A stretch of 64,000 nucleotides of DNA from Verrucomicrobiia bacterium (GCA_035495615.1 DATJFP010000097.1:4495-68494), one strand, 5' to 3'. Shown: positions 22,756-43,459, numbered from the stretch's first letter. The notes: generated by a model from the letters alone, not told the origin. Numbers and translations: made by a program.

Positions 22756-25254
22756 ATGACAAAACCGGTCTGCATTTGCTTTCACGGGCATTTTTACCAG
22801 CCCCCGCGCGAAAATGCCTGGATCGAAGACATCGAACGCCAGGAAAGCGCCGCCCCTTTCCACGACTGGAACGAGCGCATCTATTCCGAGTGCTACCTCC
22901 CCGGCGCGCGCGCCCGCGTCATCGGCCACGACGGCAAGATCGTGGACATCGTCAGCAATTACGAAAAAATGAGTTTCAACTTCGGGCCCACGCTCATGTC
23001 CTGGATCGAGATCAAGCATCCGGACACCTATCAGGCCATCCTCCAGGCCGACCGGCACAGCATGAAGATGCACCAGGGGCACGGCAACGCCATCGCTCAG
23101 GCTTACAATCACGTGATCCTGCCGCTCGCGAATGCGCGCGACAAAAAAACTCAGGTGCACTGGGGCCTGCGGGAATTCCGGCACCGTTTCGGGCGCGAGG
23201 CCGAGGCTATGTGGCTTCCGGAAACGGCCTGCAATGAAGAAACTCTGGAGGCGCTGGTGGAAGAGGGCGTGAAGTTCATCCTCCTCGAGCCGCATCAGGC
23301 CGAAGAAGTGAAGCCGCTTGCCGGCGGCGAATGGCGCGGCGTGGGTTCCGGACAGATCGACCCGCGCCATGCTTACCGCTGCTTCCTCAAGAAAGACCCG
23401 TCCAAGCACATCGACATTTTTTTCTACGACGGCCCGATTTCCAAGTCCATCGGTTTCGAAAGCGTGCTTGCCGACGCCAAGCACCTCATGCACCGCATCG
23501 AAGGCGCGATCGTGGACCACGGACACAAGCCGCAGCTCATCCATGTCGCGACCGACGGCGAAACTTACGGCCATCACAAGCCGTTCGGCGAGCGCAGCCT
23601 CGCGTACTTCCTTTATACGATGGCCCGGGAGAAGGGCTACCGCGTCGTCAATTACGGGGAATACCTCGAAGAGAACCCGCCCGCGTTCCAGGTGCGCATC
23701 AAAGCCGGCGAGAACGGCGAGGGCACGTCCTGGAGCTGCGCGCACGGGGTCAAGCGCTGGAAGGAGCATTGCGGGTGCCGCGGCGGCGGGCCGGGGGAAT
23801 GGACGCAGCATTGGCGCAAGCCTTTGCGCGACGCGCTCGACTGGCTGCGTGATGAGCTCGCAAAAGTTTTCGAGGCGCAGGGCGCGCCGTACCTCAAGGA
23901 CGTCTGGGAGGCGCGCGACGATTACATCCACGTGATCCTCGACCGCAAGCCGCCCGTCGTTAAGGCGTTCTTCACGCGGCATGCCACGCACGCGCTCGCG
24001 CGCAAGGACATGACCTTGTGCCTGCAGCTTTTGGAGATGCAGCGCCACGCCATGCTGATGTACACGAGCTGCGGCTGGTTTTTCACCGAGATCTCGGGCA
24101 TCGAGACCGTGCAGATCCTGCAGTACGCGGCCCGCGCCATGCAGCTTGCCCAGAGCGTCTCGGGCGTGAACCTGGAGCCGCAGTTCCTGGAAAAGCTCGC
24201 GCTCGCCAAAAGCAACGTCGAGGCTTACAAGGACGGCCGCGGCGTTTACGAGCAGCTGGTCAAGTCGAGCATCGCGACGCTCGAGCACATCGTAAGCTAT
24301 TACGCGATCGGGTCGATCTTCGAGGATTATTACCCGCACAAGGAAAACCTCGATATTTACAGCTTCAACCTGCAGGTGGTCCAGCAGCGCAAGGAATCGT
24401 CCGGGAACGTGACGCTCAACATCGGCCGCGTGAAGATCACCTCCAAGGTCACGCTCGACGAGAAAGACCTGATCTTCGTGGCCGTGCAGATCGGGCTTTA
24501 CGATTTCCGCTGCTCGGTCAAGGCGTTCGCGACCGACCGGGAACTGGAGAAGCTGGACCAGGAACTCTTCGACGAGCTGCACACGGGACACATCATCGAG
24601 CTGTTCAAGACGCTCGACCATTACTTCGGGGAAAAATATTTCGCGCTGAAAGACCTGCTGCTGGAAGACCGCCTCAGGATCATCACGCGGCTCACGCGCG
24701 AGCAGATCGAAAAGGTCAGCAAGTTTTACGAGCGGGTCTACGACGAAAACCGCAAGATCAACGAGATCTACCGCTCCATCAACCTGCCTATCCCTTCGGA
24801 ATTCCGTTACGCGGCCGAGCACGTGCTCGCCAAAAGGCTGATGGAGGTGCTCCAGCAGCTTTCCAAACAGGGATTCCCGATCCGCAGGATGACCGCGGCA
24901 AACCGCATCATCGACGCGGCCAAATCGCTGAATGTGGAAATCACCAAGGGGCAGATCACCGAGTACCTGAATGCCGAACTGCGGCGGACGATCCAGCGGT
25001 TCGTCCAGAAGCCGGGGACAGACCTCATCCAGGAATGCCTGTGCATCTACAAACTTTCCAAAAGGATCGGGATCGAACTCAACCCCATGGACGCCCAGGA
25101 CGATCTGTTTCAGCGGGTGCGGCATTGGCGGGAAAATCCCCAGGACATTCCGCCGGCCATCATGCCGTACGCCAATCAGTTTCTCCAGCTCATGGCGTCG
25201 CTGCATCTTTCGACCGCAGAATTGAAAAAACTGATGCAGAAATCGATGGCTTAA
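22756..25254 (+). CDS. GH57-family alpha-glucan-active enzyme with C-terminal DUF3536-like extension
   Basis: N-terminal CICFHGHFYQPPRE GH57 signature. 832 aa with a long helical C-terminal region. Confidence 0.65.
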   Translation: MTKPVCICFHGHFYQPPRENAWIEDIERQESAAPFHDWNERIYSECYLPGARARVIGHDGKIVDIVSNYEKMSFNFGPTLMSWIEIKHPDTYQAILQADRHSMKMHQGHGNAIAQAYNHVILPLANARDKKTQVHWGLREFRHRFGREAEAMWLPETACNEETLEALVEEGVKFILLEPHQAEEVKPLAGGEWRGVGSGQIDPRHAYRCFLKKDPSKHIDIFFYDGPISKSIGFESVLADAKHLMHRIEGAIVDHGHKPQLIHVATDGETYGHHKPFGERSLAYFLYTMAREKGYRVVNYGEYLEENPPAFQVRIKAGENGEGTSWSCAHGVKRWKEHCGCRGGGPGEWTQHWRKPLRDALDWLRDELAKVFEAQGAPYLKDVWEARDDYIHVILDRKPPVVKAFFTRHATHALARKDMTLCLQLLEMQRHAMLMYTSCGWFFTEISGIETVQILQYAARAMQLAQSVSGVNLEPQFLEKLALAKSNVEAYKDGRGVYEQLVKSSIATLEHIVSYYAIGSIFEDYYPHKENLDIYSFNLQVVQQRKESSGNVTLNIGRVKITSKVTLDEKDLIFVAVQIGLYDFRCSVKAFATDRELEKLDQELFDELHTGHIIELFKTLDHYFGEKYFALKDLLLEDRLRIITRLTREQIEKVSKFYERVYDENRKINEIYRSINLPIPSEFRYAAEHVLAKRLMEVLQQLSKQGFPIRRMTAANRIIDAAKSLNVEITKGQITEYLNAELRRTIQRFVQKPGTDLIQECLCIYKLSKRIGIELNPMDAQDDLFQRVRHWRENPQDIPPAIMPYANQFLQLMASLHLSTAELKKLMQKSMA

Positions 25255-27452: not shown

Positions 27453-27457
27453 ATTCA

Positions 27458-27724
27458 ATGGAAAAGAACAAGAAGAAGGCTTTATTGGCTGCTTCCATGG
27501 CCGGTCTCATGGCCGTCGCGGGCGCTGTGATTCTGCCCGGACTCGCCCATGCGGAAGGCGTTCAGTGCCATGGCGTGAACAGCTGCAAAGGCACGGGCGA
27601 ATGCGGCGGCAAGGGTCATAGCTGCGCCGGTAAGAACGCCTGCAAGGGCCAGGGCTGGATCACGGCTGCCGATGACGCTGCCTGCACGGCTCAGGGCGGC
27701 ACGCTGAAAGAAGCGGCTGAATAA
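27458..27724 (+). CDS. Cys-rich secreted peptide, candidate bufferin-like RiPP precursor (DUF2282 / BUF_6/12Cys-like)
   Basis: 88 aa with signal peptide MEKNKKKALLAASMAGLMAVAGAVILPGLAHA. The core has six Cys in a regular C-x-G-x-N/G-x-C-K-G array (CHGVNSCKGTGECGGKGHSCAGKNACKGQGW…AAC). It sits immediately upstream of the DUF692 enzyme. Confidence 0.5.
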   Translation: MEKNKKKALLAASMAGLMAVAGAVILPGLAHAEGVQCHGVNSCKGTGECGGKGHSCAGKNACKGQGWITAADDAACTAQGGTLKEAAE

Positions 27725-27742
27725 TTAAACGCCGAGGTTGAC

Positions 27743-29458
27743 GTGAAAGCGCAACAGGACAACAGTGCCTCCCCGTCGTGGCCGGTTCTTGGCTGCGGCG
27801 TGGGCCTCCGTTCGGACCACTACAATGATGTTCTGCGCGAGTGGCCGAAAATGGACTGGTTCGAGGCCGTCACGGAAAACTACATGGATTCCGGCGGCAG
27901 GCCTCTCCACATCCTGGAGCAGGTACGGCGCCGTTATCCTGTTGCGCTTCACGGCGTTTCCCTTTCCATCGGGTCCATGGACCCGCTCCATCCCGGTTAC
28001 CTCCAGCGCCTGAAGGCGCTCGTCGAACGCATCGAACCTTTCGCCGTTTCCGACCACCTGTGCTGGTCCGGCATCGATACCCAGCAATTGCACGATCTTC
28101 TGCCGCTGCCGTACACCGAAGAGTCGGTGAGGCACGTGGTGCGGCGCGTGGACCAGGTGCAGGAACTCCTGCGCCGTCCCATCCTTCTGGAAAACGTTTC
28201 CACGTATGTGACCTACAAGCATTCCACGATGAAGGAATGGGATTTTCTCAGTGAAGTGGCCGCGCGTTCGGGCTGCGGCATCCTGCTCGACCTCAATAAT
28301 ATTTACGTGAACTCCCGCAATCACGGCTTTGATCCCAAGGAATACCTCGACGCAATCGACGGCTCCAAGGTCGCTCAGTACCACCTCGCCGGCCACACGG
28401 ACATGGGCGATTTTCTTTTCGACACGCACACCGGCGAAATCATCAATCCCGTCTGGGACATTTACAAAGACGCGCTTGCAAGGTGGGGGAAAGTCTCCAC
28501 GCTGATCGAATGGGACGAAAAGATCGAGGAATATTCGAAGCTCTCAAGGCAGGCGGAAATGGCGCGCGCGCTTTACGACCGTGCCGGCACCGCGCGGCAG
28601 AAGGCGCCGGTCCGCGTATCGCTCGATAAAGCGCCTGAGGCTGGGCCCTCGCTTCTGGAATCGCAGCGCTGGATGAAAAGCTACATCCAGCCGCACGGCT
28701 CCCAGGAACCTCATCAGGAAGGATCGTTACTTAATCGCCAGGGCCGGGCGAGCGGGGAAGAACGCATGGATGTTTACGCGGGCGGTTATGCCGCGCGCAT
28801 GCGCGACGCGCTGGACGATGTTTACGAAGCGCTCAACCGCATCCTGGGCGAAAAACTTTTCTGGGAGATGGCGCAGGCTTACGCCGCGGAATACCCGTCG
28901 CAGGAATATAACCTGAGCCTCGCCGGCCGGCATTTGCCGGAATTTCTCCAAAAGCAAAATCCGATCACGGCAAAGTTCCCGTTCCTGCCGGACCTCGCCG
29001 CGCTGGAAAGGCTTGTGGCCGCGTCGTTCCATGCGTTCGACGAAAAGCCGCTTGCGCCGTCGGACCTTGCCGGGCTTTCGCCGGACGATTTCGAGAGGAT
29101 CCGCATTTTCTTCCAGCCTTCGGTGGCCGTCATGAAGTCCGCGTGGCCGGTTTGCGATTTGTGGGAAGCAAGGAATGCGCCCGCGGGAAAACTTAACGTC
29201 CCATTCGAAGGCCGGCCCCAGAACGTGCTCGTCGGCCGCCGGGACCTGAAAGTCCATTGCCAGGTCCTCGACGGCCGCCAGGTCCTGCTCCTGGAACTCC
29301 TGCTTTCCGGAAAAACCCTGGGCGAGGCGTGCGAAATCCTGCTGCAGGGCGGGGACGAACCTCTGCCCGTGTCCGAGTGGTTCGCGCAGTGGATGGCCGC
29401 GGGCTTTTTGCGCGGCTACGAGATCGCGCATCCGGCCGACGCGGCCGGAAACGGCTAG
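27743..29458 (+). CDS. fused MNIO (DUF692/MbnB-like TIM-barrel) - DUF2063 (MbnC/BufC-like) RiPP-maturation protein
   Basis: The N-terminal ~290 aa match UPF0276/DUF692 closely: GVGLRSDHY, WFEAVTENYMDSGGRPL, HGVSLSIGS, ISDHLCW, LLPLPYTEE, ILLENVSTY, GILLDLNNIYV, YHLAGH. The C-terminal ~270 aa look like DUF2063. GTG start. Confidence 0.8.
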   Translation: MKAQQDNSASPSWPVLGCGVGLRSDHYNDVLREWPKMDWFEAVTENYMDSGGRPLHILEQVRRRYPVALHGVSLSIGSMDPLHPGYLQRLKALVERIEPFAVSDHLCWSGIDTQQLHDLLPLPYTEESVRHVVRRVDQVQELLRRPILLENVSTYVTYKHSTMKEWDFLSEVAARSGCGILLDLNNIYVNSRNHGFDPKEYLDAIDGSKVAQYHLAGHTDMGDFLFDTHTGEIINPVWDIYKDALARWGKVSTLIEWDEKIEEYSKLSRQAEMARALYDRAGTARQKAPVRVSLDKAPEAGPSLLESQRWMKSYIQPHGSQEPHQEGSLLNRQGRASGEERMDVYAGGYAARMRDALDDVYEALNRILGEKLFWEMAQAYAAEYPSQEYNLSLAGRHLPEFLQKQNPITAKFPFLPDLAALERLVAASFHAFDEKPLAPSDLAGLSPDDFERIRIFFQPSVAVMKSAWPVCDLWEARNAPAGKLNVPFEGRPQNVLVGRRDLKVHCQVLDGRQVLLLELLLSGKTLGEACEILLQGGDEPLPVSEWFAQWMAAGFLRGYEIAHPADAAGNG

Positions 29459-29494
29459 CCTCCTGACAACCCGATTTCAACCGTGGCGGGCTGA

Positions 29495-31624
29495 GTGACT
29501 TCGAGCTCCCAATCCAATCCCAACGGTTCGAGCTCCTGGAAAGTTTTCGCTTACATCGCCGTTCCCGCGGCCCTTGCGTTTCTTCTCATCCTCAAGGTGT
29601 TCCTGATCTCCGGATGCTTTGCCTTCGACGCGAATGACGACGCGGGCTACACGTTCCTGAGCCTTGCCGCCGCGCGCCATGTGCTCCGGCAGGGCGCGTT
29701 GCCGCTTCTGAATCTCTATCATGCTTTCGGGACGCCGATCCCGGGCGACTGCCTCACGTTTCCGTTTGCCCCGCAGGCCGTCACGTATGCGTTCCTGCCC
29801 GGCAAGTACGCGATGACCGTGAACCGTTTCGTGCTGGCCTGGATTACCGTGGCCGTCCTGACGCTCTATTACCGCCGGCGCCTGCCGCATCCCTGGGCCT
29901 CGTTCTGCGCGGTGCTCGCGTTTCTCACCCCGGGCGCGCTGTGGAATTTCGCGCACCATCACTATCAGACCGCGCTTCTTTTCTCCGCGGCGCTTTTGCT
30001 TTTCGAGGAGCGCTTCATCGAAAACGGGAAAAAGCGCGACGCGGTTTTCTTTTACGCGGCCGCGGTGCTGATGATCCAGAGCCTCAGCATGATGATCGTG
30101 CTGATCGCCGTTTTTTTCTCGGCGGCGAACGCCTTTTTCGAAGCCGGAAAGGAAAGAAGGCCCCGCGCGCTGCGCATCGCCGCGCTTCTTGCCGCGGCCT
30201 TTGTTTTCCAGATTCCGGAAGTCCTGTCCTTCCTGGCGCAGGCCGCGGGAAGCCTGCGCGCGTCTTCGGGGTTCGGCATCGAAATCCCGCCGCGCCGGAT
30301 GCTGGCAGGCATCCTGGGCGGCCTCACGGATTTCCGGCATCTCCACGAAGCCTGGATTTATTTTCCGCTGCCGCTCATGGCCGCGGTGGCCGCGGGATGG
30401 AAAAAGACGGGCCGAGGCGCCGTGAAAATTCTGACCCTTGGCGTCCTGCCGCTTTTCGGCGTTACGGTGCTGCTCATGTGCCAGCGCCTTTATTGGGCGA
30501 TCCCGTATTTGAAATCGACGGACATCACGCGGTTCTGGTGGGTCTCCAATATTTTCCTGATGGCGGCGCCGGGCGCTTTTTTTGCCGGCCTGAAGGAAAG
30601 GACGGTGCGGCAGGCCGCCCTTTTTGCTTCCGCCGTCTTCGCGGGCTTTCTGCTTTCGCAGCTCGCCGTCGATTACCGGACGCTCGACCGTTTCGTTCGC
30701 GAACCGGTTTTTATTTTCACGGTGCTGGCGATGGCGTATGCCGCTTTTCTCGCGCTGGGCGGAGAAGCGAAGGCCGCGGCCGTTTCCAAAATCTTTTCCG
30801 CGCTCATGGCGCTGACGGTGCTTGCCGCGCTGTACCCGGTGGTCCGCCATACCCTGGGCTTCGAGGATCTGAAAAAATGCCGCGTCTCGCATTGGTTTTC
30901 CGACGCCGCGGACCAGGATTACGCGCTGCAGCCGCTCGTGCCGTTTCTCCAGCCGGGTTCGCGCATCACGCACGAAGCGCACATGGTTTACCGCCACGAC
31001 GCGAAGGTGAATGCCAACGGCCTTTTCGGCGCGCAGCCCGTGACGCCGCTGCATTACCGCCCTTTTGACGAATATCTCATCGGCCGGGGGCTCGTACAGA
31101 AAGAAACGGACACGTACGGGCTCGGCCAGTACCATTTTATCCAGCCGTGGAGGGCGGACGCTCTCCGCGATCTCGGCATCCGCTACGTGGTGCAGGGCGG
31201 ACGTAACCCGCAGGCCGAAAGCGAGGGCTGGAAAAACGTGACGAATTACGCCGTGCTTTCCCTTTATGAAAATCCGCGGCCCGTCAGCCTGGCGTATCTC
31301 GAAGAGGGAAGCTCGAGGACGGCGCTGCCGCAGGAAGCGATCCGGTTCCGCCGCAACGGCCTGGAAGCCGCGCTGCCGGCGCTGGAGAGGGAAGAAGAAC
31401 TCGTGGCGGCTTTTGCGGCAAGGCCCGGATGGAAAGCGCGTGTCGATGGAAACCTTCGGGCCCTGGACTCTGCGGCCGGGGAAGCGCCGCTTCTCCGCGT
31501 GAAGGTCGGGCCCGGCAATCATGCCGCCTCTTTCGATTACGAACCGTTCAGCCTGGGACAGGTTTTGCTTTGCGCGATTTTATCGCTGGGAATTTTGGGG
31601 CTCGCGCTTCGGCGCGCGTCTTGA
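29495..31624 (+). CDS. YfhO-like polytopic membrane protein (GT-C-like glycosyltransferase family)
   Basis: 709 aa with many TM helices. The C-terminal GWKARVDGN…LRVKVGPGNHAASFDYEPFSLG resembles the YfhO C-terminal signature (W.A.VDG…P.G.H.V.F.Y.P). GTG start. Confidence 0.45.
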   Translation: MTSSSQSNPNGSSSWKVFAYIAVPAALAFLLILKVFLISGCFAFDANDDAGYTFLSLAAARHVLRQGALPLLNLYHAFGTPIPGDCLTFPFAPQAVTYAFLPGKYAMTVNRFVLAWITVAVLTLYYRRRLPHPWASFCAVLAFLTPGALWNFAHHHYQTALLFSAALLLFEERFIENGKKRDAVFFYAAAVLMIQSLSMMIVLIAVFFSAANAFFEAGKERRPRALRIAALLAAAFVFQIPEVLSFLAQAAGSLRASSGFGIEIPPRRMLAGILGGLTDFRHLHEAWIYFPLPLMAAVAAGWKKTGRGAVKILTLGVLPLFGVTVLLMCQRLYWAIPYLKSTDITRFWWVSNIFLMAAPGAFFAGLKERTVRQAALFASAVFAGFLLSQLAVDYRTLDRFVREPVFIFTVLAMAYAAFLALGGEAKAAAVSKIFSALMALTVLAALYPVVRHTLGFEDLKKCRVSHWFSDAADQDYALQPLVPFLQPGSRITHEAHMVYRHDAKVNANGLFGAQPVTPLHYRPFDEYLIGRGLVQKETDTYGLGQYHFIQPWRADALRDLGIRYVVQGGRNPQAESEGWKNVTNYAVLSLYENPRPVSLAYLEEGSSRTALPQEAIRFRRNGLEAALPALEREEELVAAFAARPGWKARVDGNLRALDSAAGEAPLLRVKVGPGNHAASFDYEPFSLGQVLLCAILSLGILGLALRRAS

Positions 31625-31631
31625 GAAGGGA

Positions 31632-32374
31632 TCAGGCCCGCTTTTTCGCGAGCATCACGATGCTGGAGCCGAAGGGAAGCGAAAGCCCGCGCGCCATCCA
31701 CGCGGCTTCCTGGTAAACGGCCCAGCGGCAAAGGTCATTGACCGGCCCGGGCGGGATTTCGTTGAAGGATTTCTTCTCGCCGCGCCGCAGCAGCCGATCC
31801 AGCCTGTCGAAAATCACCAGCCCCAGCTTCAGCGGAAAAAGAAGAAGATTGTAGTAAGTGAAATAAACGATCTCGAATTTTTCCCGGAACAATTTGTCCA
31901 TCATGACGCGGTTGTAGCGCCGGTAATGATGGACGACCTCGTCCATTTGCGTCCAAAGCCACTGATGGGCCGGCGTCGTGATCAGGACGTGGCCGCCTTT
32001 TTCGAGATGCTGGTCAAACCATTCCACGGCCTCGGCGTCGTTTTCGATGTGCTCGAAGACTTCGATCAGGACGATCAAATCAAAACGGCGTTCGAGTTTC
32101 TGCGGCAGTTTCCATTGGCGCACCTCCGCCGACCCCCGGAATTTTTCCGCGACATACGCCACCGCGTCCTCATTGAGCTCGAGCCCTGTCACCTTGCCGT
32201 ATTGCTGCAGCGTGGGAATGTTGCAGCCGTAGCCGCAGCCGACGTCCGCGATGCTGAGAGGGCGCGCCGGGGCCAGGTGCTTTTCGATGACGGTCTGCAC
32301 GATTTTTTTGCGCCCCTGCCAGAGCCAGTGTTTGTCCTGAACGTCTTTCATGAGGCGGTATTCGGAGATTTCCA
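31632..32374 (-). CDS. class I SAM-dependent methyltransferase
   Basis: SAM motif I VGCGYGCN. Coding is restricted to the C-terminal 247 codons of track ORF 31632..33146, starting MEISEYRLM; the upstream part of that ORF is an alternate frame of the neighbouring GT-C gene. Confidence 0.65.
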
Positions 32375-32377
32375 TGG

Positions 32378-33919
32378 TTATTTCCTTTTGAACAGGATGT
32401 ACGGGCCCCAGGACTGCACGGGCTGGTAGTGCGAAAACAGGAATTCTTCCAATCCTAAATAGACTAGCATAATGTTCAACTTGAAGGGGCCATTGTCCTT
32501 GTAAGTCAGGATCCAGTCGGGCGGATTGTTCTGGATGTTGTGCGAAACCGCTTCCTGCTGTTTGCCGGGCTGCGGCTGGTCCTGGAATTTGAACTGGAAG
32601 CTGACGCCGGGATACGGCACGCGGCCGGTCAGCGCGTACAGGACGTGCAGGTTCGTGAGCACGAGAAAGGAATCTTTCTGGGGAATGTGGTCGCGGACAT
32701 ACGGCGCGATGGCCTCCAGGTTCCGGCCCCAGATCTCGTAAACGTGCCAGCCCTGCAGCGGCCCTTCCTGCATCGTGTAATCGCAGCAGCGCCCGTATAT
32801 CGAATGCGTCTTCCGGCCGCTGATCGATTCGCAGGCGTAGCCCACGCAGCGCGCGGTCTGGAACAGCACGAGAAAAGAAAGCAGCGCGGCCCCAGCCTTG
32901 AAAAGAGGGGATTTCCTTCCGCCTTCGGCGGCATCGCTTTGGAAGATTACGCAGAAGCCGAGCGCGACGATCATGCCCAGAAGCGGCATGTGGCCGGGAT
33001 GGCGGTGCGAGCCGGTAATGTGCGAGAAAATCGCGGTCATGGCCACGCCCGCCAGCAGCACGTAGAATTCGCGGAGTTTCCAGAGGCTGCGCCGCGCGAG
33101 CCAGGTTCCGGCCAGAAGCGGCAGCCAGTAGCCGTGATTCAGCCATTCGCCCGGCGAAGTCATGCGCTGGAAGCGGCTGCCCATATTGTTATTGTAGTAA
33201 TCGAAGTTGTTGACGAGAAAGGCCGGAATGTCGCCGATCAGATGCAGGCCGAGGAGCGCCGTGGCCCAGCAGCCGGCGGCGTAGCCGAAAAATCCCCAGG
33301 CCCGGAACTCGCGGTTGACCAGAAAAAAGACCAGGAAGACGAAGCCGAACAGGAGTCCGTCATTGAGCTTCGTCAGTACCGCGCTCAGCGCAAGAAATCC
33401 GGTGGCGAAGCCGGTCCAGAACGCAGCCTCGCGGCTCGTGAAAGGCATGCGCGCCAGAAGCAGGCAGGTCCCGACGATGCCCCAGAAGCTGACGTAAGTG
33501 TCGTACGTGGGAAAGGCGTAAAACCAGTTGAAGCCGCACGCGGTCATGAGCGCTGCGAGAAAGGCGAACGGCCAGGGAATCCATTTCTTCGCGGCGGCAT
33601 ACACCACCAGAGTCGCGAGCGAGCTGGTCACGACGAGCAGCGTCAGGATCGCGGCCTTGCCGAATCCCAGGATCTTGAAAAGCAGGGCGAGTGTGTCCAC
33701 GTAAAGGGGCACGGCGTGGAAATGAAAATCCACGTAAAGGCGCTGGCCCATCGTGATGCGCCAGGCCGTGTTCAAAAAGCCGCCGTAATCTTCGGGATCG
33801 AACCCGTACAGCATCGCCTTCTTGAGCAGCGCGAAATTCACGAGCAGGAGCGCGGCGAGCGCGAGCCATTCCGCGAGCGCGGGATATCTTGCCGTATTTT
33901 GGACCGTCGGCTTGTTCAT
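32378..33919 (-). CDS. GT-C-fold membrane glycosyltransferase (ArnT/PMT/GT39-like)
   Basis: 513 aa with about 12 TM helices. N-terminal loop GFDPEDYGG. Overall architecture matches polyprenyl-phosphate-sugar-dependent GT-C enzymes. Its stop is 3 nt from the MTase start. Confidence 0.45.
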   Translation of the reverse strand: MNKPTVQNTARYPALAEWLALAALLLVNFALLKKAMLYGFDPEDYGGFLNTAWRITMGQRLYVDFHFHAVPLYVDTLALLFKILGFGKAAILTLLVVTSSLATLVVYAAAKKWIPWPFAFLAALMTACGFNWFYAFPTYDTYVSFWGIVGTCLLLARMPFTSREAAFWTGFATGFLALSAVLTKLNDGLLFGFVFLVFFLVNREFRAWGFFGYAAGCWATALLGLHLIGDIPAFLVNNFDYYNNNMGSRFQRMTSPGEWLNHGYWLPLLAGTWLARRSLWKLREFYVLLAGVAMTAIFSHITGSHRHPGHMPLLGMIVALGFCVIFQSDAAEGGRKSPLFKAGAALLSFLVLFQTARCVGYACESISGRKTHSIYGRCCDYTMQEGPLQGWHVYEIWGRNLEAIAPYVRDHIPQKDSFLVLTNLHVLYALTGRVPYPGVSFQFKFQDQPQPGKQQEAVSHNIQNNPPDWILTYKDNGPFKLNIMLVYLGLEEFLFSHYQPVQSWGPYILFKRK

Positions 33920-33947
33920 GATTTTGAAAATCCTGTTTTTCCGAAGG

Positions 33948-36164
33948 TTAGGGCGCGCGTCTCAGCGGCATCAAGGCGTCCGCGGCGAAAACAAAGAGTG
34001 CCAGCGTGAAAAAGATACCATACGCGGCCACGGTAACGCTGCGGAAACTTTCGCCGTCATTCCAATAATATAATTTCACGCGATGCCTGCCGTGCGGAAC
34101 AAAAACAGCCTTGAAGCCGACGTTCGCGTGGTTGACCGCCGTTTGTTTTCCGTCGACGGACGCATGCCAGCCCGGATGCCAGGCATCCACGTAATAAAGC
34201 CAGGCGCCTTTCGGATAAGTGACGTCCGCCTCCGCCTCCAGGCGGTTGAAAGAAAAGTCCGTGACCTTGACGCGGCCCGCTTCCGCATTCGGCGCGGGAG
34301 TCCAGGATGCCTGGATTTCCGCGGGGATGCCTTCAAGGAAAACTTTTTCCGGCTCGCGATTCAGCCGGAAAAGGCTTTGTCCGGCCGACTCGGTGCTGGG
34401 CGAAAACTCGACGTCGGTGACAAGCCGCAGCTTCGGCCCTTCGCAGCCCACGGTGCCGAAGCACGAGCTGCGCGCGATCATGAAAAACTTTCCGAACCAT
34501 TCATTCCATTCGAAGTTGGTGTACTCCTCGGCGTGATAAGTGTCAAAGAAAAGGAAGTTGTAGATTTCCTTCTGGAACCGCGCCGGGCTGCGGTTCAAAA
34601 GCTCTTCGGCCTCGACCATGCGGGGCTGGGTTCCCTTCAGGCCCCGCGCCTCCTGATATTGAAACGGGAAAACCTCGAGAAGTTCGCGGCTCAGGCTGGC
34701 GATGCGCATGGGCCAGGTCTTGAAAAAAGCGGCCTGGAAAAGATAAAGGTTTGCCGTAAGGGCGGCCACGGCAATCAGTCCGCTCAAGCGGGGAAAACGG
34801 AAGGCCAGGAGAACCGCGAGGCCGCCGGCGGCCGTGATCACGAGGCCCTGCGAAAAAACCTGCGGCCACAACACCCAGTTGTCCGCCTGCATGGCGTCGA
34901 ACGGCAGGCGCATCCAGACCATGAACCCGAGGACGACGGCAAGGCTGGCCGGAAAAGCGAGGAGCACGCGCCGGCGCGCGGAGGAACCGGCCTCCGCCGC
35001 ATGCGCCAGGAAATGATCGAGGCCGAAACCCGCAAGCAAAATAAGAAACGGCCGCATCAGGCCGCCGAGAATGCCCACGTAACGGAAAAGGCGGATGGGC
35101 GGAAAAATTTCGTAGATGAATTCCGCGATGGGCGTGTTTGCGCCGAGAGAGAGCGCGCCGATCAGAAAGAGCGACGCGGCGAGCGCCGCATGAAAAAGAT
35201 TCCTTACACAAACGAGGCCGGTCAGGAGAAAGGCAAGCGTGAGCCCGCCGACGAAAACGCTCATCTTCAGCGGCACATAGGACGGGTAAAGGGCCGTCAG
35301 GAATTTTTCCGGCCCGGTATAGCCGCCGTGCTGGAGGAAAAGCTGCAGCGGCACCGTGAAATCGGAGCTTCTTCCTTGCTGCATGCTGTCGATGTGGTCG
35401 TACATGTGAAGCGCGAAAAGGACAAACAGGCCGGCCACGGCGAGAAAGGCCGCGGCGCCCGCGGCATTAGGCCCTTCCGGCGCGAAGAGTGTTTTGAAGA
35501 GCGTCCTTTTGCGGAAGATCATGAAAACGAGAAAGACGGAGACGATTAGCATGTTGAGCGCCGCGAAATAAGGCGGAATCCCGAATTGCACGGTGACCGA
35601 CACGAGGCCCGCAAGCCAGAGGTAAACCGCTTTTTCTCTTTTATAGAAAAGGACCAGGAAGTAAAGGATGAGCGGCAGCAGGTAGAAGATCCGGAAATTC
35701 CAGTAGACGTTCGTCAGCCAGATCGTGCTTCCCACCATCGCGACGGAGCAGAAAAGGACGGAGGCGCGTTTTTTGAAAAGTTCGCCGCCCAGAAGGGAAG
35801 TGCCGAGAACGAGCATGCCTTCTTCCAGCAGGATGGAAAATTTAAAAAGGAAATTAACGTCCCGGATGCGCAGAAGGCCGCCCGCGAGGCCCGCGAAGTA
35901 TTGGGCCGGGGTGAAGGTGTCGAGCTGCGCGTAGTCCATCGATATCCCATAAACGCCGTACGGGAACCACTGGGCCAGCTCATGATGGAAGAAAAAGTTG
36001 GTGTAATAGGTGTAAAAGCGCTGGAAAACGTAGATGGTATCGCCCTGGTACCAGACATGGCGGTCCCAGACCGGGAAGCGGAAGAGGGCCCAGGCCAGCA
36101 GCAGGAATAAAACTTCGGGCGCCCGGAAAAGGGCTTTTTTGTCGAAGCTGAGGGTTGTCTTCAT
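33948..36164 (-). CDS. YfhO-family large membrane protein
   Basis: 738 aa. C-terminal VDAWHPGWHASVDGKQTAVNHANVGFKAVFVPHGRHRVKLYY matches the YfhO C-terminal signature, and the N-terminal half is polytopic. Confidence 0.5.
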   Translation of the reverse strand: MKTTLSFDKKALFRAPEVLFLLLAWALFRFPVWDRHVWYQGDTIYVFQRFYTYYTNFFFHHELAQWFPYGVYGISMDYAQLDTFTPAQYFAGLAGGLLRIRDVNFLFKFSILLEEGMLVLGTSLLGGELFKKRASVLFCSVAMVGSTIWLTNVYWNFRIFYLLPLILYFLVLFYKREKAVYLWLAGLVSVTVQFGIPPYFAALNMLIVSVFLVFMIFRKRTLFKTLFAPEGPNAAGAAAFLAVAGLFVLFALHMYDHIDSMQQGRSSDFTVPLQLFLQHGGYTGPEKFLTALYPSYVPLKMSVFVGGLTLAFLLTGLVCVRNLFHAALAASLFLIGALSLGANTPIAEFIYEIFPPIRLFRYVGILGGLMRPFLILLAGFGLDHFLAHAAEAGSSARRRVLLAFPASLAVVLGFMVWMRLPFDAMQADNWVLWPQVFSQGLVITAAGGLAVLLAFRFPRLSGLIAVAALTANLYLFQAAFFKTWPMRIASLSRELLEVFPFQYQEARGLKGTQPRMVEAEELLNRSPARFQKEIYNFLFFDTYHAEEYTNFEWNEWFGKFFMIARSSCFGTVGCEGPKLRLVTDVEFSPSTESAGQSLFRLNREPEKVFLEGIPAEIQASWTPAPNAEAGRVKVTDFSFNRLEAEADVTYPKGAWLYYVDAWHPGWHASVDGKQTAVNHANVGFKAVFVPHGRHRVKLYYWNDGESFRSVTVAAYGIFFTLALFVFAADALMPLRRAP

Positions 36165-36330
36165 GAAGTCGGGTTTTAGCCGGGTGGAATCCAGGAACCC
36201 GGCTGCCCCGCTTGCCGGGACAAAATTTACTACGACATTTTTCGGAACTTACTGAATTTTAATCTTTTAAGCGTTCGAGCCGATAATATTGTTTCCTGAA
36301 CCGGCCTTTTGGCCGTCGGAAAGGAAGGAC

Positions 36331-37062
36331 ATGAACGCGCAAAATCGTGACCCCAAAGTCACGCTGGCCGTCTATACCCTCAATGAAATTGACGGGATGC
36401 GCGCGGTCATGCCCAAAGTCCGCAAAGAGTGGTGCGACGAAATCATCGTGATCGACGGCGGGTCCACGGACGGGACGGTCGAGTACGCCAGGGAGCAGGG
36501 CTATGCCGTTTACCGGCAGAAAGAGCCGCGGTGGGGCGGCGCGCACCGGGAGGCTTACAGCCGGGCCGCGGGCGACATCGTGATCGATTTTTCCCCGGAT
36601 GGGAATTCCGTGCCGGAACTCATCCCGCAGCTCGTGGCCAAGATCAAAGAGGGATACGACATGGTCATTGCGTCGCGTTATACCGGAGGCGCCAAAAGCG
36701 ACGACGACACCGCGGTGACGGGCTTCGGCAACAGTCTTTTTACATTTCTGGTGAACTTGCTTTTCGGCTGCCGGTATACGGATTCGCTGGTCATTTACCG
36801 CGCCTTCACCCGCCCGTTTCTCGAAAAAGCGGGGGTCGTCAACTGCAGCCTGCCGCAATGCGTGACCGTCCTGACCTGCATCCGGGCGGCGAAAATCAAG
36901 GCCAGGACCGCGGACGTGCCCGGGGACGAGCCTCCCCGCATCGGAGGCCACCCCAAGATGAACCCCTTGATCGACGGGCTGCGCGTGCTGGCCGTGATTT
37001 TTAAGGAATTTTTTATTCGCGATTTTAAAAAAAGCTGCGTTTCCCAGAACATTCAAGCGTGA
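36331..37062 (+). CDS. GT2 polyprenyl-phosphate sugar transferase (DPM1/ArnC/GtrB-like), paralog a
   Basis: VTLAVYTLNEIDGM…IIVIDGGSTDGT…DIVIDFSPDGNSVPE…GYDMVIASRY — the classic GT2 DxD-type layout. The ATG at 36331 is preceded by aaggaagg. Confidence 0.7.
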   Translation: MNAQNRDPKVTLAVYTLNEIDGMRAVMPKVRKEWCDEIIVIDGGSTDGTVEYAREQGYAVYRQKEPRWGGAHREAYSRAAGDIVIDFSPDGNSVPELIPQLVAKIKEGYDMVIASRYTGGAKSDDDTAVTGFGNSLFTFLVNLLFGCRYTDSLVIYRAFTRPFLEKAGVVNCSLPQCVTVLTCIRAAKIKARTADVPGDEPPRIGGHPKMNPLIDGLRVLAVIFKEFFIRDFKKSCVSQNIQA

Positions 37063-37144: not shown

Positions 37145-38137
37145 ATGATCATCAGCAGGACCCCCTTCAGGATTTCTTTCTTCGGCGGCGGCAGCGACTA
37201 TCCGGCCTGGTACTCCAAGTACGGCGGCAAGGTCATTGGCACGACCATCGACAAGTACTGTTATATCAGCTGCCGTTATCTCCCTCCGTTTTTTACCTAT
37301 AAACACCGGATCGTGTATTCCAACATGGAATACGTGAACGACCTTTCCGAGATTAAGCATCCGGCCGTCAAAGGAATCCTGGAAACCCTCAAGGTCGACC
37401 GCGGCATGGAAATCCATCATGACGGCGACCTGCCGGCGCGTTCCGGGCTGGGTTCGAGTTCGTCTTTTACCGTGGGCCTGCTGCATGCCCTTCACGCGCT
37501 GCATGGCAAATTTATTTCCAAACGCGATCTCGCCAACGAGGCCGTGCACATCGAGCAGGAAGTGCTCAAAGAAAACGTGGGCTCGCAGGACCAGATCCTC
37601 GCGGCTTACGGAGGCTTCAACATGATCGAGTTCCACCAGGGCGGCACGTACGATGTCCAGCCCGTGATCCTGCCCAAAGAACGCCTCACGGAATTCCAGC
37701 AGAACCTGATGCTCTGCTTCACAGGCATAACACGCATCGCCTCGACCATTGCCAAGGCGCACATCGACAACCTGGAAAAAAGGAAGCGCGAAATCCAGAT
37801 GATGCAGCAGATGACCCACGAGGCCATCAGCATCCTGCAAAGCTCCAGCCAGATCGACGAATTCGGCAAGCTTCTCCACGAATACTGGAACTACAAAAAA
37901 AGCCTCTCGGACAAAGTGACGACTCCCGAGGTGGACGAAATTTACACCGCCGCGCTCGAGGCCGGAGCCCTGGGCGGCAAGCTGCTCGGCGCGGGAGGCG
38001 GCGGATTCATGCTGTTTTTCGCCAAGCCGGAAGCGCAGCAAAAGATCCGGGAAAGGCTCAAAAAACTCGTCCATGTGGGCTTCCGTTTCGAATTTTCCGG
38101 AAGCAAAATCGTGATTTACGAACCCTACAACTTCTAG
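37145..38137 (+). CDS. GHMP sugar kinase, HddA-like (D-glycero-D-manno-heptose 7-phosphate kinase-like)
   Basis: MIISRTPFRISFFGGGSDYPAWY N-terminus and the PxRSGLGSSSS phosphate-binding loop. 330 aa. Confidence 0.6.
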   Translation: MIISRTPFRISFFGGGSDYPAWYSKYGGKVIGTTIDKYCYISCRYLPPFFTYKHRIVYSNMEYVNDLSEIKHPAVKGILETLKVDRGMEIHHDGDLPARSGLGSSSSFTVGLLHALHALHGKFISKRDLANEAVHIEQEVLKENVGSQDQILAAYGGFNMIEFHQGGTYDVQPVILPKERLTEFQQNLMLCFTGITRIASTIAKAHIDNLEKRKREIQMMQQMTHEAISILQSSSQIDEFGKLLHEYWNYKKSLSDKVTTPEVDEIYTAALEAGALGGKLLGAGGGGFMLFFAKPEAQQKIRERLKKLVHVGFRFEFSGSKIVIYEPYNF

Positions 38138-38139
38138 AC

Positions 38140-39099
38140 ATGAATAAAGAAAAAGCCAAACAGATTTACCACGATGTTTACCTGGTCCGCCGCTGCGAAG
38201 AAAAAATCCGCGACGAATACGCCTCGGACGCGATGAAAACGCCCGTGCATCTGCACGTGGGCGCCGAAGCCATCTGCGCGGGCGTCCTGGCCGCGCTTCC
38301 CAAAGGCCTCAAGGTTTTCGGGACTTACCGCAATCACGGGCTCTACCTGCCGCTCACGCAGGACCCGAAATCGTTTTTCGCGGAGCTGTACGGCAAGGCG
38401 ACAGGCTGCGCCCAGGGCAAGGCCGGTTCCATGCATCTCACCGCGCCCGAGCACGGGCTTTTTCTCACGTCCGCGGTCGTGGCCACGACGATTCCGGTGG
38501 CCGTCGGCGCCGCTCTCGCGCATCAGTACCGCAAAGAAAAAAACGTAGTGGCCGTTTTCTTCGGCGACGGCGCCGTGGAAGAAGGTGCGTTCTGGGAAAG
38601 TCTGAATTTTGCCTGCCTGAAACAACTTCGCGTCTTCTTTGTCTGCGAGGACAACGACCTGGCCATCCACACGCCGACCGCGCATCGCCAGGGCTTCAAG
38701 TCCATTCCCGAAGCGGCCGCGGGCTTCCGCTGCCACATGGCCACCGCGGACGGATGGGATCCGGAAACAGTTTACGCCGCGGCTTCCGGACTTCTTCAGA
38801 GAATGGAAGCCGAACCCAAGCCCTGCTTGCTGCATTTCAAATATTTCCGTTATCTCGAGCACGTAGGCGTGGGCGAGGATTTCAAATTCGGCTATCGCCC
38901 CAAGCCGGACGAGCCCGCGCTGCAAAAGTATGATCCTCTGAAAGCTGCCGAGCGCATGGCCGCCAATCACGGCCTTTCGGATTCCGACATCCAGAAGATC
39001 AACCAGGAAGTGGACGCACTTATCGAGGAGAGCGTGGCCAAGGCCAAGACCGACCCCTTTCCCGACGAACAGGAATTCGGACGCGGAGTCATGAGCTGA
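38140..39099 (+). CDS. thiamine-diphosphate-dependent dehydrogenase E1 alpha-like subunit
   Basis: A GDGAVEEGAFWESLNFA TPP-binding motif (GDG…N) and VGAEA…YRNHG regions resemble the PDH/acetoin-DH E1 alpha family. Confidence 0.7.
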   Translation: MNKEKAKQIYHDVYLVRRCEEKIRDEYASDAMKTPVHLHVGAEAICAGVLAALPKGLKVFGTYRNHGLYLPLTQDPKSFFAELYGKATGCAQGKAGSMHLTAPEHGLFLTSAVVATTIPVAVGAALAHQYRKEKNVVAVFFGDGAVEEGAFWESLNFACLKQLRVFFVCEDNDLAIHTPTAHRQGFKSIPEAAAGFRCHMATADGWDPETVYAAASGLLQRMEAEPKPCLLHFKYFRYLEHVGVGEDFKFGYRPKPDEPALQKYDPLKAAERMAANHGLSDSDIQKINQEVDALIEESVAKAKTDPFPDEQEFGRGVMS

Positions 39100-40289
39100 T
39101 GAAAGCCTCCCAGCCGGTTGAAAAATTGAACTGGCCGCTCATGGCAGACAATATTTTGCCCGAAGACCGGCAGGCCGTGATCGAGTTCCTGAAGCACAAC
39201 GACCGGCTCACGCAGTGGAAAGAAGTGCGCGCGTTCGAAAAGGAATGGTCCGAGTGGATCGGCGTGAAGCACAGCGTGTTCGTCAATTCCGGCGCGTCCG
39301 CGAACCTGATCACGCTGGCCGCGCTGAAAGAAATCGCCGGGCCGGGCGAAGTCATCGTGCCGACGCTGACCTGGGTGTCGGACATCGCGTCGGTGCTGCA
39401 GAACGGTTTCACGCCGGTATTCGTGGACATCAACCCGCGGCATCTCGGCATGGCCGAAGACGAGGTCGCCAAAAAGATTACGCCGAAGACCAAGGCGGTT
39501 TTCCTCACGCATATCCTCGGCTACAACGCGCTGACGGACGGACTGATGAAGACCCTGAAAGAAAAGAATATCCCGCTCATTGAAGACGGCTGCGAGTCGC
39601 ACGGCGCGCGCTTCAAGGGCAAGAGGATCGGCTCGTTCGGCTGGGCCTCCAACTTTTCCTTTTATTACGCGCATCACCTCAGCACCGTGGAAGGCGGCAT
39701 GGTGTGCACGAACGACGACGAACTGTACCAGATGATGCGCATGTTCCGATCGCACGGTCTGGTGCGCGAGATGGACGACGAAAGCCTCAAGAAGCGCTAT
39801 CACGAAAAGTATCCGGACCTCGACACGCAGTTTATTTTTGCATTCCCGGCCTACAACGTGCGCAGCACGGAGATCAACGCGGTATTCGGGCGCAACCAGC
39901 TGAAGCGGCTGCAGGACGAGATCGACGAGCGCAATGAAAACCTCAAAGTGTTTCTGGGCGGGCTCGATCCGGCAAAGTACCGCACGGATTTCGAATTGGA
40001 GGGCGTGAGCAATTACGCGTTAACGCTGGTGCTCCAGAAAAATTTCACGGACAGGGCGGAGAAGGTCACGAAGATGCTGGTCGAAGCCAACGTCGAATAC
40101 CGGCGCGGCACTTCCGGCGGCGGCAACCAGCTCCGCCAGCCGTACCTGAAAAGACTTTTCGGGGACGCGTACAAAAACTATCCCGAAGTCGAGCACGTGC
40201 ACTTTTACGCGTATTACATCGGAAATTATCCCGGCCTGGACAAGGGCTTGATCAAAAAACTCTGCGCCATGCTCAACTCGATCGATTGA
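39099..40289 (+). CDS. DegT/DnrJ/EryC1/StrS-family PLP-dependent sugar aminotransferase/dehydratase
   Basis: VNSGASANLI, GDEVIVP-like and FSFYYAHHLSTVEGG regions are typical of the DegT family. Its start shares a nucleotide with the E1 alpha stop (TGATG). Confidence 0.7.
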   Translation: MKASQPVEKLNWPLMADNILPEDRQAVIEFLKHNDRLTQWKEVRAFEKEWSEWIGVKHSVFVNSGASANLITLAALKEIAGPGEVIVPTLTWVSDIASVLQNGFTPVFVDINPRHLGMAEDEVAKKITPKTKAVFLTHILGYNALTDGLMKTLKEKNIPLIEDGCESHGARFKGKRIGSFGWASNFSFYYAHHLSTVEGGMVCTNDDELYQMMRMFRSHGLVREMDDESLKKRYHEKYPDLDTQFIFAFPAYNVRSTEINAVFGRNQLKRLQDEIDERNENLKVFLGGLDPAKYRTDFELEGVSNYALTLVLQKNFTDRAEKVTKMLVEANVEYRRGTSGGGNQLRQPYLKRLFGDAYKNYPEVEHVHFYAYYIGNYPGLDKGLIKKLCAMLNSID

Positions 40290-40293
40290 GGCC

Positions 40294-41334
40294 ATGAAAA
40301 AACACATCACTTACCGCGACGCGATCAACGAAGCCTTGATGGACGAAATGACGGCCGACGACCGCGTGTTCGTCTTCGGCCTGGATGTGCCCGACCACAA
40401 GCGCATCTTCGGCAGTACCGCGAACCTCGTCGAAAAATTCGGGCCGGAGCGCTGCTTTGCCACGCCGCTTTCCGAAGACGGCATGACGGGCGTTGCGCTT
40501 GGCGCGGCCCTCAGCGGGCTCAGGCCCGTGCACGTTCATATCCGCGTGGACTTCATGCTGCTTGCCATGAACCAGATCGCGAACATGATTTCCTGCGCGC
40601 GCTACATGACCGGCGGCAAGGTCAAGGTGCCGCTTGTCATCCGCGCCGTGATCGGCCGCGGGTGGGGCCAGGGCGCGCAGCACAGCAAGACGCTGCAGAG
40701 CATTTTCGCGCATATCCCCGGACTCAAAGTCGTGATGCCCACGAACCCGCAGGACGCGTACAGCCTTCTCCGGACTTCGATCCAGGACGAGGACCCGGTC
40801 ATTTTTCTCGAGCACCGCTGGCTCTACGACGCGTTCGGCGACGTGGACAAGGAATTCAAGATCCCGATCGGCAAGGCGCTGGTCAAGCGTGACGGCACGG
40901 ACATCACGGTCGTGACGACGTCCTGGATGATGGTCGAGGCCCTGAAGGCGCGCGAGATCCTGATGCGCCGCAACGTGTCCGTCGAAATTGTGGACGTGCG
41001 CACGATTGCGCCCGCGGACATGGACACCATCGCCGCGTCCGCGGCCAAGACCGGCCGCTGCATCGTGGCCGACTACGACTGGGTGCCCTGCGGTTTCAGC
41101 GCCGAAGTCGCGGCGGAAGTCTCGAAGCGCTGCTTCGGAAAATTGAAGCTGCCCGTCGAAAGGATCGGTTTTGCACCCACGCCCTGCCCGACGACACGTC
41201 CGCTCGAAAATCTTTTTTATCCCTCCGCGATCACCCTCATCAGAACCATCGAAAAAATGATGGGCCTTTCGGAAACCGATCTCTCCGGAGAAAAGTTTTA
41301 TTCCTGGGAAGAGCGGTTCAAAGGGCCTTTCTGA
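40294..41334 (+). CDS. E1 beta-like subunit (transketolase-like pyrimidine-binding + C-terminal domain)
   Basis: ITYRDAINEALMDEM…VFVFGLDV…FGPERCFATPLSEDGMTGVALGAALSGLRPV is typical of 2-oxoacid dehydrogenase E1 beta. Confidence 0.7.
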   Translation: MKKHITYRDAINEALMDEMTADDRVFVFGLDVPDHKRIFGSTANLVEKFGPERCFATPLSEDGMTGVALGAALSGLRPVHVHIRVDFMLLAMNQIANMISCARYMTGGKVKVPLVIRAVIGRGWGQGAQHSKTLQSIFAHIPGLKVVMPTNPQDAYSLLRTSIQDEDPVIFLEHRWLYDAFGDVDKEFKIPIGKALVKRDGTDITVVTTSWMMVEALKAREILMRRNVSVEIVDVRTIAPADMDTIAASAAKTGRCIVADYDWVPCGFSAEVAAEVSKRCFGKLKLPVERIGFAPTPCPTTRPLENLFYPSAITLIRTIEKMMGLSETDLSGEKFYSWEERFKGPF

Positions 41335-41343
41335 CGGAGCCGC

Positions 41344-42327: not shown

Positions 42328-42354
42328 GCGGCTCTGCCGCCGGCGGGTACTCGC

Positions 42355-43407: not shown

Positions 43408-43459
43408 TTCCGCCCCTGCTCCGGCCCAGCCCCTCGGGCGGAGAAATTGAAGGAATCAT

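Follow-up and report, generated by a model that had tools for sequence, protein, structure and literature searches.

Does a compact group of genes in an uncultured bacterium encode enzymes that attach sugars outside the cytoplasmic membrane? The question is raised by positions 29495-37062 of a 64,000-nucleotide stretch of DNA from a Verrucomicrobiia bacterium (GCA_035495615.1, DATJFP010000097.1:4495-68494); this whole stretch is called the window. A preliminary description, made from the sequence alone, placed five genes in this region, and all five are present at or near the positions it gave. With a probability of roughly 0.6, the region is the transferase core of an extracytoplasmic glycosylation system in a Verrucomicrobia metagenome-assembled genome (MAG), of the type in which a glycosyltransferase (GT) of the GT-A fold works with one of the GT-C fold. 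The genes and the intergenic region are as follows, with protein lengths in amino acids (aa).

29495-31624, + strand: gene A, 709 aa, predicted divergent YfhO-like GT-C glycosyltransferase
31632-32375, - strand: methyltransferase (MT), 247 aa, predicted class I enzyme dependent on S-adenosylmethionine (SAM), cytoplasmic, last gene of the C-B-MT operon
32378-33919, - strand: gene B, 513 aa, predicted GT-C-fold membrane glycosyltransferase, distantly PMT_2/ArnT-like
33948-36164, - strand: gene C, 738 aa, YfhO-family GT-C glycosyltransferase, first gene of the C-B-MT operon
36165-36330, no strand: intergenic region between C and GT2a, 166 bp, divergent
36331-37062, + strand: GT2a, ~243 aa, predicted GT-A glycosyltransferase without transmembrane (TM) helices, first gene of a long + strand sugar operon

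The YfhO assignment starts from C, which matches the Pfam YfhO family (PF09586) with 36.5 bits against a gathering threshold of 28.5 (E 2.6e-9). The same family is matched by 36 of the 42 aligned members of the C family, and an exhaustive search found 6370 cluster representatives related to C at E<=1e-3, of which 409 reach E<=1e-30. By hydropathy, the soluble part of C spans 482-709; it follows hydrophobic segments up to residue 481 and precedes a TM helix at 710-728. The protein ends in the signature W..SVDGK...PHGRH...YY.

The relation of A to C appears when whole families are compared. The A profile aligns with the C profile (42 sequences) in hhalign with a probability of 97.9% and an E of 5.5e-13 over 643 columns that include both the first and the last TM helix. 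Single-sequence comparisons of A and C saw the C-terminal W..VDG motif only: the sole BLASTP match of A against C and of B against C was a 20-residue C-terminal stretch (E 0.017), and the A profile aligned with the single C sequence over the C-terminal 39 residues only (14.6% probability). The A family is represented by five homologues at 29-37% identity, found in a collection of 5.8 billion proteins by a search that reaches only relatives having short words in common with the query. Its invariant motifs are FD..D at residues 44-48, GD.LT.PF at 84-91 and AHHHYQ at 153-158. A sub-threshold match of A to DUF5360 was disregarded.

The AlphaFold2 model of A has a predicted local distance difference test (pLDDT) score of 73 and a predicted template modelling (pTM) score of 0.77. 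A Foldseek search of the PDB with this model returned GT-C enzymes for all of the top 30 matches, at probabilities of 0.99-1.00. These include ArnT (5.5e-8), AftD, STT3, AftA, EmbB/C, AglB, DPY19, PglB and ALG12; unrelated transporters rank below them with a probability of <=0.3. Sequence searches of the PDB with A and C, and with the B and C profiles, gave no matches. By hydropathy, the N-terminal part of A has eight segments, and residues ~450-685 are soluble, with a TM helix after them at 687-705. The secondary structure of the model agrees with this layout, and the soluble part is beta-rich and predicted to be extracytoplasmic. A and C therefore both show the YfhO architecture of a polytopic N-terminal domain, a large soluble domain and a single C-terminal TM helix. 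The profile alignment with C, together with a PDB ranking made up of GT-C enzymes alone, argues that A is a GT-C glycosyltransferase of a divergent YfhO-like type, sharing the layout of C. Two large YfhO-like proteins of 709 and 738 aa had been proposed for the region; the proposal holds for C by Pfam and for A by profile-profile alignment and fold matches. The signature W..VDG…P.G.H…Y that both were said to carry is literal in C, whereas A (WKARVDGN...GPGNH...DY) reads PG.H in place of P.G.H.

Protein B has two homologues in the protein database, at 28-30% identity, and a third in an Omnitrophota MAG (L009; loci from other genomes carry such numbers), which scores 23.7 bits against PMT_2, under the cut-off of 26.1. 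A profile search adds two more proteins, one of which (P0010) is annotated with PF13231 (PMT_2), at 2.9e-9. The five B-family sequences align over their whole length and share invariant D44, R54, G58, Y62, D64, P.YD at 137-140 and K.N.G. In hhalign, the B family showed no relation to the C family or to a four-gene array elsewhere in the window (described below), and its match to the A profile is weak (61%, E 8e-5). Judged on its predicted structure and family alignment, B is accepted as a GT-C by fold that is distantly PMT_2-like, and is no demonstrable member of PF13231. The description of B as an ArnT/PMT-like GT-C protein thus stands as regards the GT-C fold and the profile link to a PMT_2-annotated protein, but not as a PF13231 match. 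A and B represent small, uncatalogued GT-C families, that of B being very small.

An acidic residue just after the first TM helix is invariant in all three families: D45/D48 in A, D44 in B and D42 in C, the last across 42 sequences. This aspartate is probably periplasmic and catalytic.

The GT-A side of the system would be provided by GT2a and two paralogues at the far end of the sugar operon.

46215-46910, + strand: GT2b, paralogue of GT2a (PF00535 3.5e-18, AglJ 1.3e-29)
46907-47590, + strand: GT2c, paralogue of GT2a in tandem with GT2b (PF00535 6.3e-19, AglJ 1.3e-31)

GT2a matches PF00535 at 1.4e-14, and its best NCBIfam family is AglJ (1.5e-24), followed by dolichol-phosphate-hexose (Dol-P-hexose) transferase (3e-17). 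GT2b and GT2c are 46-56% identical to it. The top NCBIfam families of the three proteins are AglJ, the haloarchaeal Dol-P-hexose transferase, ArnC, PgfS and PpgS, the match to the PpgS model being weak (2.5e-4 to 2.2e-7), and the top PDB matches are the Pyrococcus DPMS 5mlz (1.5e-9) and then three ArnC structures. Two motifs are invariant in the subfamily: SPDGN, and VDGGS.DGT, which replaces DDxSxD. Metagenomes are rich in its members, the matches numbering at least 368 at about 45-56% identity. In 14 of the 58 metagenome loci (24%) that were testable, having enough flanking DNA, the GT2 has a large polytopic or GT-C-like open reading frame (ORF) as its direct neighbour. Such ORFs cover 18.4% of the DNA within 2.5 kb of the GT2 genes versus 9.3% beyond 4 kb. 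GT2a-c are likely, but not proven, to be polyprenyl-phosphate sugar synthases. The prediction of one such enzyme in the region agrees with GT2a being closest to polyprenyl-phosphate glycosyltransferases rather than to non-lipid GT2s, though under every curated cut-off. The three undecaprenyl-phosphate-sugar synthases predicted for the window have their candidates in the paralogous genes at 36331, 46215 and 46907.

The partnership of these genes recurs in other genomes. One A-family locus (L001/L002, GCA_043720065.1) has the order GT2, A-like gene, 174-aa protein, second A-like paralogue and MT. Its GT2 is 44-45% identical to the window GT2s and its MT is 47% identical to the window MT; a nearby DAO oxidoreductase is 42% identical to that encoded at 51321-52517 of the window. 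The remaining A homologues adjoin nucleotide-sugar genes or GT9. In L008, a B-like gene is followed by an ArnC/PgfS-like GT2 and then by an MT homologue (30% identical to the window MT), and another B homologue is preceded by a TylF-type methyltransferase. In L009, a C-like gene is followed immediately by a B-like gene, the same order as in the window. The C family was surveyed in 43 loci of GTDB genomes, whose hosts are mostly Omnitrophota, Planctomycetota, Nitrospirota, delta-proteobacteria, Chloroflexota and Verrucomicrobiota. A GT2 lies within 10 kb in nine of the 43, directly adjacent in four and 660 bp off in one; six of these nine GT2s were scanned with NCBIfam, and every one is closest to a polyprenyl-phosphate enzyme. 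The linkage of GT-A and GT-C genes is found in L001, L008, L021, L030, L038, L039, L049, L088, L096 and L113. The conserved synteny that had been proposed as a check is present in other phyla in the form of the C-then-B order, a GT2 beside relatives of A, B and C, and the MT.

Three side observations concern these loci. L001 also encodes three more large unannotated membrane proteins of 643, 702 and 562 aa (15595-19631, - strand; 6583-8271, + strand), which flank its GT2, A-like and MT genes. The profiles of A, B, C and the array gave no match to any of the three, and a weak match to the carbohydrate-binding F5/8 type C domain occurs in the 643-aa protein. The neighbours of the A homologue in L003 include an E1-transketolase fusion, an E2 and a carrier protein. 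In the Planctomycetia MAG locus L039, a stop-free frame of 1675 codons (4726-9750) lies directly upstream of the C-like gene, with a GT2 domain at residues 90-209 and a PMT_2 domain at 1160-1317. The frame could represent either a fusion of a GT-A with a GT-C or several unresolved genes in a row.

The MT matches Methyltransf_23 (1.9e-14), Methyltransf_11, Methyltransf_12 and Methyltransf_25 in Pfam, as expected for the small class I SAM methyltransferase that had been proposed. It has no signal peptide or TM helix, and a hydrophobic stretch at residues 169-187 (peak hydropathy 1.44) might hold the enzyme at the membrane. The same type of MT is present in five of the 43 C-family loci, with a sixth match being marginal. 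Two Omnitrophota MAGs encode the GT2 and the MT as a single ORF (L030, 7788-9314; L038, 8418-10001), with opposite domain orders. Each fusion adjoins a C-like YfhO gene and has a GT2 half of the polyprenyl-phosphate type, and the MT half of the L030 fusion is 29% identical to the window MT over its full length (E 6e-31). Because of these fusions, methylation is argued to be coupled to the cytoplasmic GT2 step. The recurrence of the MT with GT2/GT-C pairs and its fusions to GT2s point to sugar methylation before export.

The window has two further groups of genes related to this system, the sugar operon and the four-gene array.

37145-46218, + strand: nucleotide-sugar tailoring genes downstream of GT2a, identified with Pfam and NCBIfam
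38140-39099, + strand: pyruvate-dehydrogenase-type E1 alpha
40294-41334, + strand: pyruvate-dehydrogenase-type E1 beta, split from E1 alpha by an RfbH/ColD-like pyridoxal-phosphate enzyme
47583-52517, + strand: remainder of the operon, with an epimerase, a nucleoside triphosphate transferase, a reductase, a Rieske protein and an FAD oxidoreductase (DAO, 51321-52517)
9879-16758, + strand: four-gene array of tandem PMT_2-like polytopic paralogues of 572, 578, 567 and 573 aa

GT2a heads the + strand operon, which reaches ~52.5 kb, and no intergenic gap between 29.5 and 52.5 kb is above ~170 bp. The tailoring genes encode an HddA-like kinase, the E1 alpha subunit, an RfbH/ColD-like DegT enzyme, the E1 beta subunit and an Fcl-like reductase, and further an FkbM methyltransferase, an Fcl-RmlD fusion and a Gmd-like dehydratase. 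The operon (37145-52517) is the likely source of the sugars for the cluster, and its gene content suggests the synthesis of a 3,6-dideoxy or two-carbon-branched sugar. The array paralogues are 43-45% identical and have 8-9 hydrophobic segments each. One of them (13337-15040) passes the PMT_2 cut-off (31.3 bits versus 26.1), two are sub-threshold and the first has no match; all four are counted as candidate GT-Cs. With A, B and C they bring the window to seven GT-C candidates, in line with the at least seven of the preliminary description, and no further one was found in the window.

The gene set, the folds, the homologies and the recurring gene partnership are consistent with the following pathway. 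The sugar operon would make one or more unusual nucleotide sugars in the cytoplasm. GT2a-c, as soluble proteins at the membrane periphery, would then load single sugars onto polyprenyl (undecaprenyl) phosphate, and the cytoplasmic MT would methylate the sugar, more likely once it is lipid-linked than while it is still a nucleotide sugar. A flippase, perhaps encoded outside the cluster, would carry the lipid-linked sugars across the membrane. A, B and C would each use a lipid-phosphate-sugar donor on a periplasmic or surface acceptor, such as lipopolysaccharide (LPS), another glycan or a protein, with chemistry depending on the acidic residue of the first periplasmic loop (D45/D48, D44 and D42, respectively). 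The presence of three GT2s and three GT-Cs invites a one-to-one pairing. Which lipid carries the donor, which sugars are involved, when methylation takes place, whether three GT2s pair with three GT-Cs and what the acceptor is are all matters of inference. A more specific variant is offered tentatively and is considered unlikely: the dedicated MT would edit the lipid-linked sugar before flipping, each of the three soluble SPD-motif GT2s would feed one of the three GT-Cs, two of which are from uncatalogued families, and methylated or C-branched deoxy sugars would be placed on the Verrucomicrobia envelope without a GtrA-type flippase.

Mycobacteria provide a precedent for parts of this pathway. 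In the PpgS (Rv3631)/Rv3779 and Ppm1 systems a small TM-less GT2 makes the polyprenyl-phospho-sugar and a GT-C transfers it outside the membrane, and lipid-linked donors can be edited before transfer, as by DprE1/E2. The window GT2s are likewise small and TM-less, but their PpgS match is weak, a partner protein of the mycobacterial type was not identified, and the editing enzyme would be a methyltransferase. Haloarchaeal N-glycosylation by the Agl proteins (AglJ, AglD, AglS, AglP) combines a lipid-phosphate-sugar synthase, a membrane transferase with the lipid-phosphate sugar as its donor, and a SAM methyltransferase acting on the lipid-linked sugar. AglJ or Dol-P-hexose transferase is the best family of all three window GT2s. 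Unlike the Agl system, the window comes from a bacterial host, its GT2s reach at most a third of the score that the AglJ cut-off demands, and no sequence match to an AglB/PglB oligosaccharyltransferase was found.

Systems combining a GT-A, a flippase and a GT-C are established, CsbB/YfhO among them (PMC8035078, PMC11127046). In Bacillus, Staphylococcus and Listeria, the three components CsbB, GtcA and YfhO glycosylate lipoteichoic or wall teichoic acid (PMC8035078, PMC5836110). The window resembles this system in pairing a GT2, thought to make a C55-phosphate-sugar, with a YfhO-family GT-C, and in the design of A and C, in which an extracellular domain and a terminal TM helix follow the polytopic domain. 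It differs in having a diderm host in which teichoic acids are not expected, in a YfhO match of C confined to the C-terminal ~70 residues, in GT2s without TM helices, in the lack of a GtrA/GtcA-type flippase gene and in a methyltransferase within the operon. Gram-negative bacteria have the GtrA/GtrB/Gtr* O-antigen glucosylation and GT136 pentofuranose systems (PMC11127046). These share with the window the proposed order of lipid-phosphate sugar synthase, flippase and periplasmic GT-C adding side-chain sugars, and the window cluster is embedded in sugar genes of the polysaccharide type. In contrast to them, the window has three GT2s and three GT-Cs in one cluster, and an SMR/MATE flippase was not found. 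A and B show no detectable sequence relation to Gtr* or GT136 proteins, though no search aimed at such a relation was made.

Several observations weigh against reading the region as a transferase core. A has no Pfam or NCBIfam family match, with no YfhO at E<=0.01, and B has none either, PMT_2 (PF13231) included. The YfhO match of C covers only residues 631-703 (profile 755-826 of 835). The preliminary description had named a lack of YfhO or GT-C family matches in the large membrane proteins as grounds against itself; C passes YfhO, but neither A nor B has a match to YfhO, PMT or any further GT-C family, which taken literally speaks against that description, so deeper tests were needed. The AlphaFold2 model of B is of moderate quality (pLDDT 63, pTM 0.63), and its top 25 PDB matches, all GT-C enzymes, have low TM-scores of 0.3-0.38. 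No GtrA/SMR-type flippase, sought as an ORF of 80-220 aa with at least three hydrophobic segments, occurs in the whole window, and there are no MATE, Wzx or GtrA Pfam matches among the scanned window proteins; the flippase may be encoded elsewhere in the genome. No GT2 lies within 10 kb in 34 of the 43 C-family loci, and the neighbour counts on the GT2 side and on the C side are raw figures from these loci. The host is an uncultured MAG, and the cluster is known from its genes and structure models. The interpretation as a GT-A plus GT-C glycosylation cluster is supported, by deeper evidence than had originally been proposed.

The GT2s carry further points on this side, which together favor a different role for them: ordinary cytoplasmic enzymes acting on a soluble or undecaprenyl-diphosphate-linked acceptor, with the GT-C donors coming from elsewhere or the GT-Cs being polymerase- or ligase-like. 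All of their polyprenyl-phosphate family matches are far under the curated NCBIfam cut-offs (AglJ, for example, 87-110 bits versus 325). By hydropathy, none of GT2a, GT2b and GT2c has a TM segment, unlike the anchored GtrB, ArnC and archaeal DPMS. In addition, the SPD of the subfamily aligns with the DAD of archaeal DPMS, so that the first Asp of the DxD motif is lost and the second is kept. Weaker matches to GT2s with soluble acceptors (glucosyl-3-phosphoglycerate synthase, arsenosugar GTs) are also present, and the 24% of testable loci with an adjacent polytopic partner is a low proportion. This role is nevertheless considered improbable, since the top NCBIfam and PDB matches are consistently polyprenyl-phosphate enzymes (AglJ, Dol-P-hexose transferase, DPMS, ArnC, PpgS) and GT2s directly next to A-, B- and C-type genes are found repeatedly in other genomes. 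Polyprenyl-phosphate synthases without TM helices also exist, such as human DPM1 and mycobacterial PpgS.

Two other explanations concern the GT-Cs. If they were protein O-glycosyltransferases (PMT/PgfM-like), they would act on secreted or membrane proteins, and not on LPS or an envelope polysaccharide; this differs from a transferase core as proposed here in the acceptor only. The PMT_2-like character of B and of the four array paralogues fits such a role. It also fits that in other genomes PgfS, the GT-A that serves protein glycosylation in the streptococcal Pgf system, is the nearest family to the GT2s next to B-like and C-like genes. Glycosylation of Ser/Thr-rich regions by a GT-C in streptococci (PMC12041528) also counts for it. 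A protein acceptor is rated as rather unlikely, as nothing in the window points to one, and a large deoxy-sugar operon such as the adjacent one is found more typically in clusters for polysaccharide or LPS. The position of A, 36 bp downstream of an unrelated bufferin-like pair of genes for a ribosomally synthesized and post-translationally modified peptide (RiPP) and convergent with the C-B-MT operon, weighs against its belonging to the glycosylation cluster. Being co-directional with the MNIO-DUF2063 gene of that pair, A could be an export or modification partner in the RiPP operon. Four of four independent A-homologue loci adjoin GT2, methyltransferase, GT9 or nucleotide-sugar genes and never MNIO/DUF2063, and the A model has a GT-C fold. 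Membership of the bufferin operon was rejected on these neighbourhoods and is very improbable.

As a transferase core, the region does not overturn the current picture of GT-A plus GT-C systems, but brings in new lineages and, possibly, a step in which the donor is edited. Envelope glycans have hardly been studied in Verrucomicrobia, Omnitrophota and uncultured phyla related to them, and the cluster supplies testable candidates for such work. New family models could be built from the A and B families, which Pfam and NCBIfam do not cover. The TM-less GT2 subfamily with the SPD motif may consist of lipid-phosphate sugar synthases of a class so far overlooked.

The gene starts and strands were settled as follows. 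The mechanical ORF of the MT is 504 aa, its 5' part overlapping B; the true start is the ATG at 32375, which gives 247 aa, has a GGA-rich site upstream and lies 2 nt past the stop of B. The GT2a ORF opens at a TTG at 36289, but the ATG at 36331, with GGAAAGGAAGG just upstream, is the likelier start. For C, the public gene model appears truncated, its 596 aa corresponding to residues 143-738, and an exact-sequence look-up of full-length C gave no record, the public model being shorter. Dozens of C homologues align from residues ~5-20 of the 738-aa ORF, Asp42 included. A and B are identical to the database entries VL688_12350 and VL688_12360, on a 73,847-bp contig of an uncultured MAG. Since C and B are separated by 28 nt and B and MT by 2 nt, the three genes form one operon. 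A is convergent with the MT, their stop codons being 7 nt apart, and GT2a is divergent from C. Judged from the gene arrangement only, the 166-bp gap between GT2a and C presumably carries promoters for both operons; a promoter scan of 36165-36330 found no sigma-70 consensus match, and the terminator and promoter scans were uninformative for the cluster. The Rfam and tRNA scans of the whole window were empty.

The DNA has a guanine-plus-cytosine content of ~58%, and most of the real genes are therefore shadowed by long antisense ORFs.

29477-31522, - strand: antisense ORF opposite A, 681 aa, rich in Arg, Gly and Glu
32540-34009, + strand: antisense ORF opposite B, 489 aa, rich in Arg, Gly and Glu
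34083-35549, + strand: antisense ORF opposite C, 488 aa, rich in Arg, Gly and Glu

These ORFs were rejected as genes: those opposite A and B, the two that were scanned, have no Pfam match, all three have a biased composition, and homologues, which for A and B are full-length at 28-37% identity, back the opposite strand. By these sequence criteria, A, B, C, MT and GT2a are real genes rather than chance ORFs, and the antisense frames are their shadows.

Between the array and the cluster lie glycogen-metabolism genes, cdaA, yceI and the bufferin-like RiPP pair, and one more gene of possible relevance follows the sugar operon.

16867-25254, + strand: glycogen/alpha-glucan set with glycogen phosphorylase, a DUF4912 protein, a GH57 branching enzyme and a GH57-DUF3536 protein
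27455-29458, + strand: bufferin-like RiPP pair, with the YceI gene upstream
27455-27724, + strand: small secreted Cys-rich precursor of the pair, with a signal peptide and CxGxNxCKG-type repeats
27743-29458, + strand: second gene of the pair, fusing an MNIO enzyme (MbnB/TglH/ChrH, PF05114, 3.8e-106) to DUF2063
56372-57100, + strand: PAP2-superfamily phosphatase, 4 kb beyond the cluster

The PAP2 phosphatase could recycle polyprenyl pyrophosphate or phosphate.

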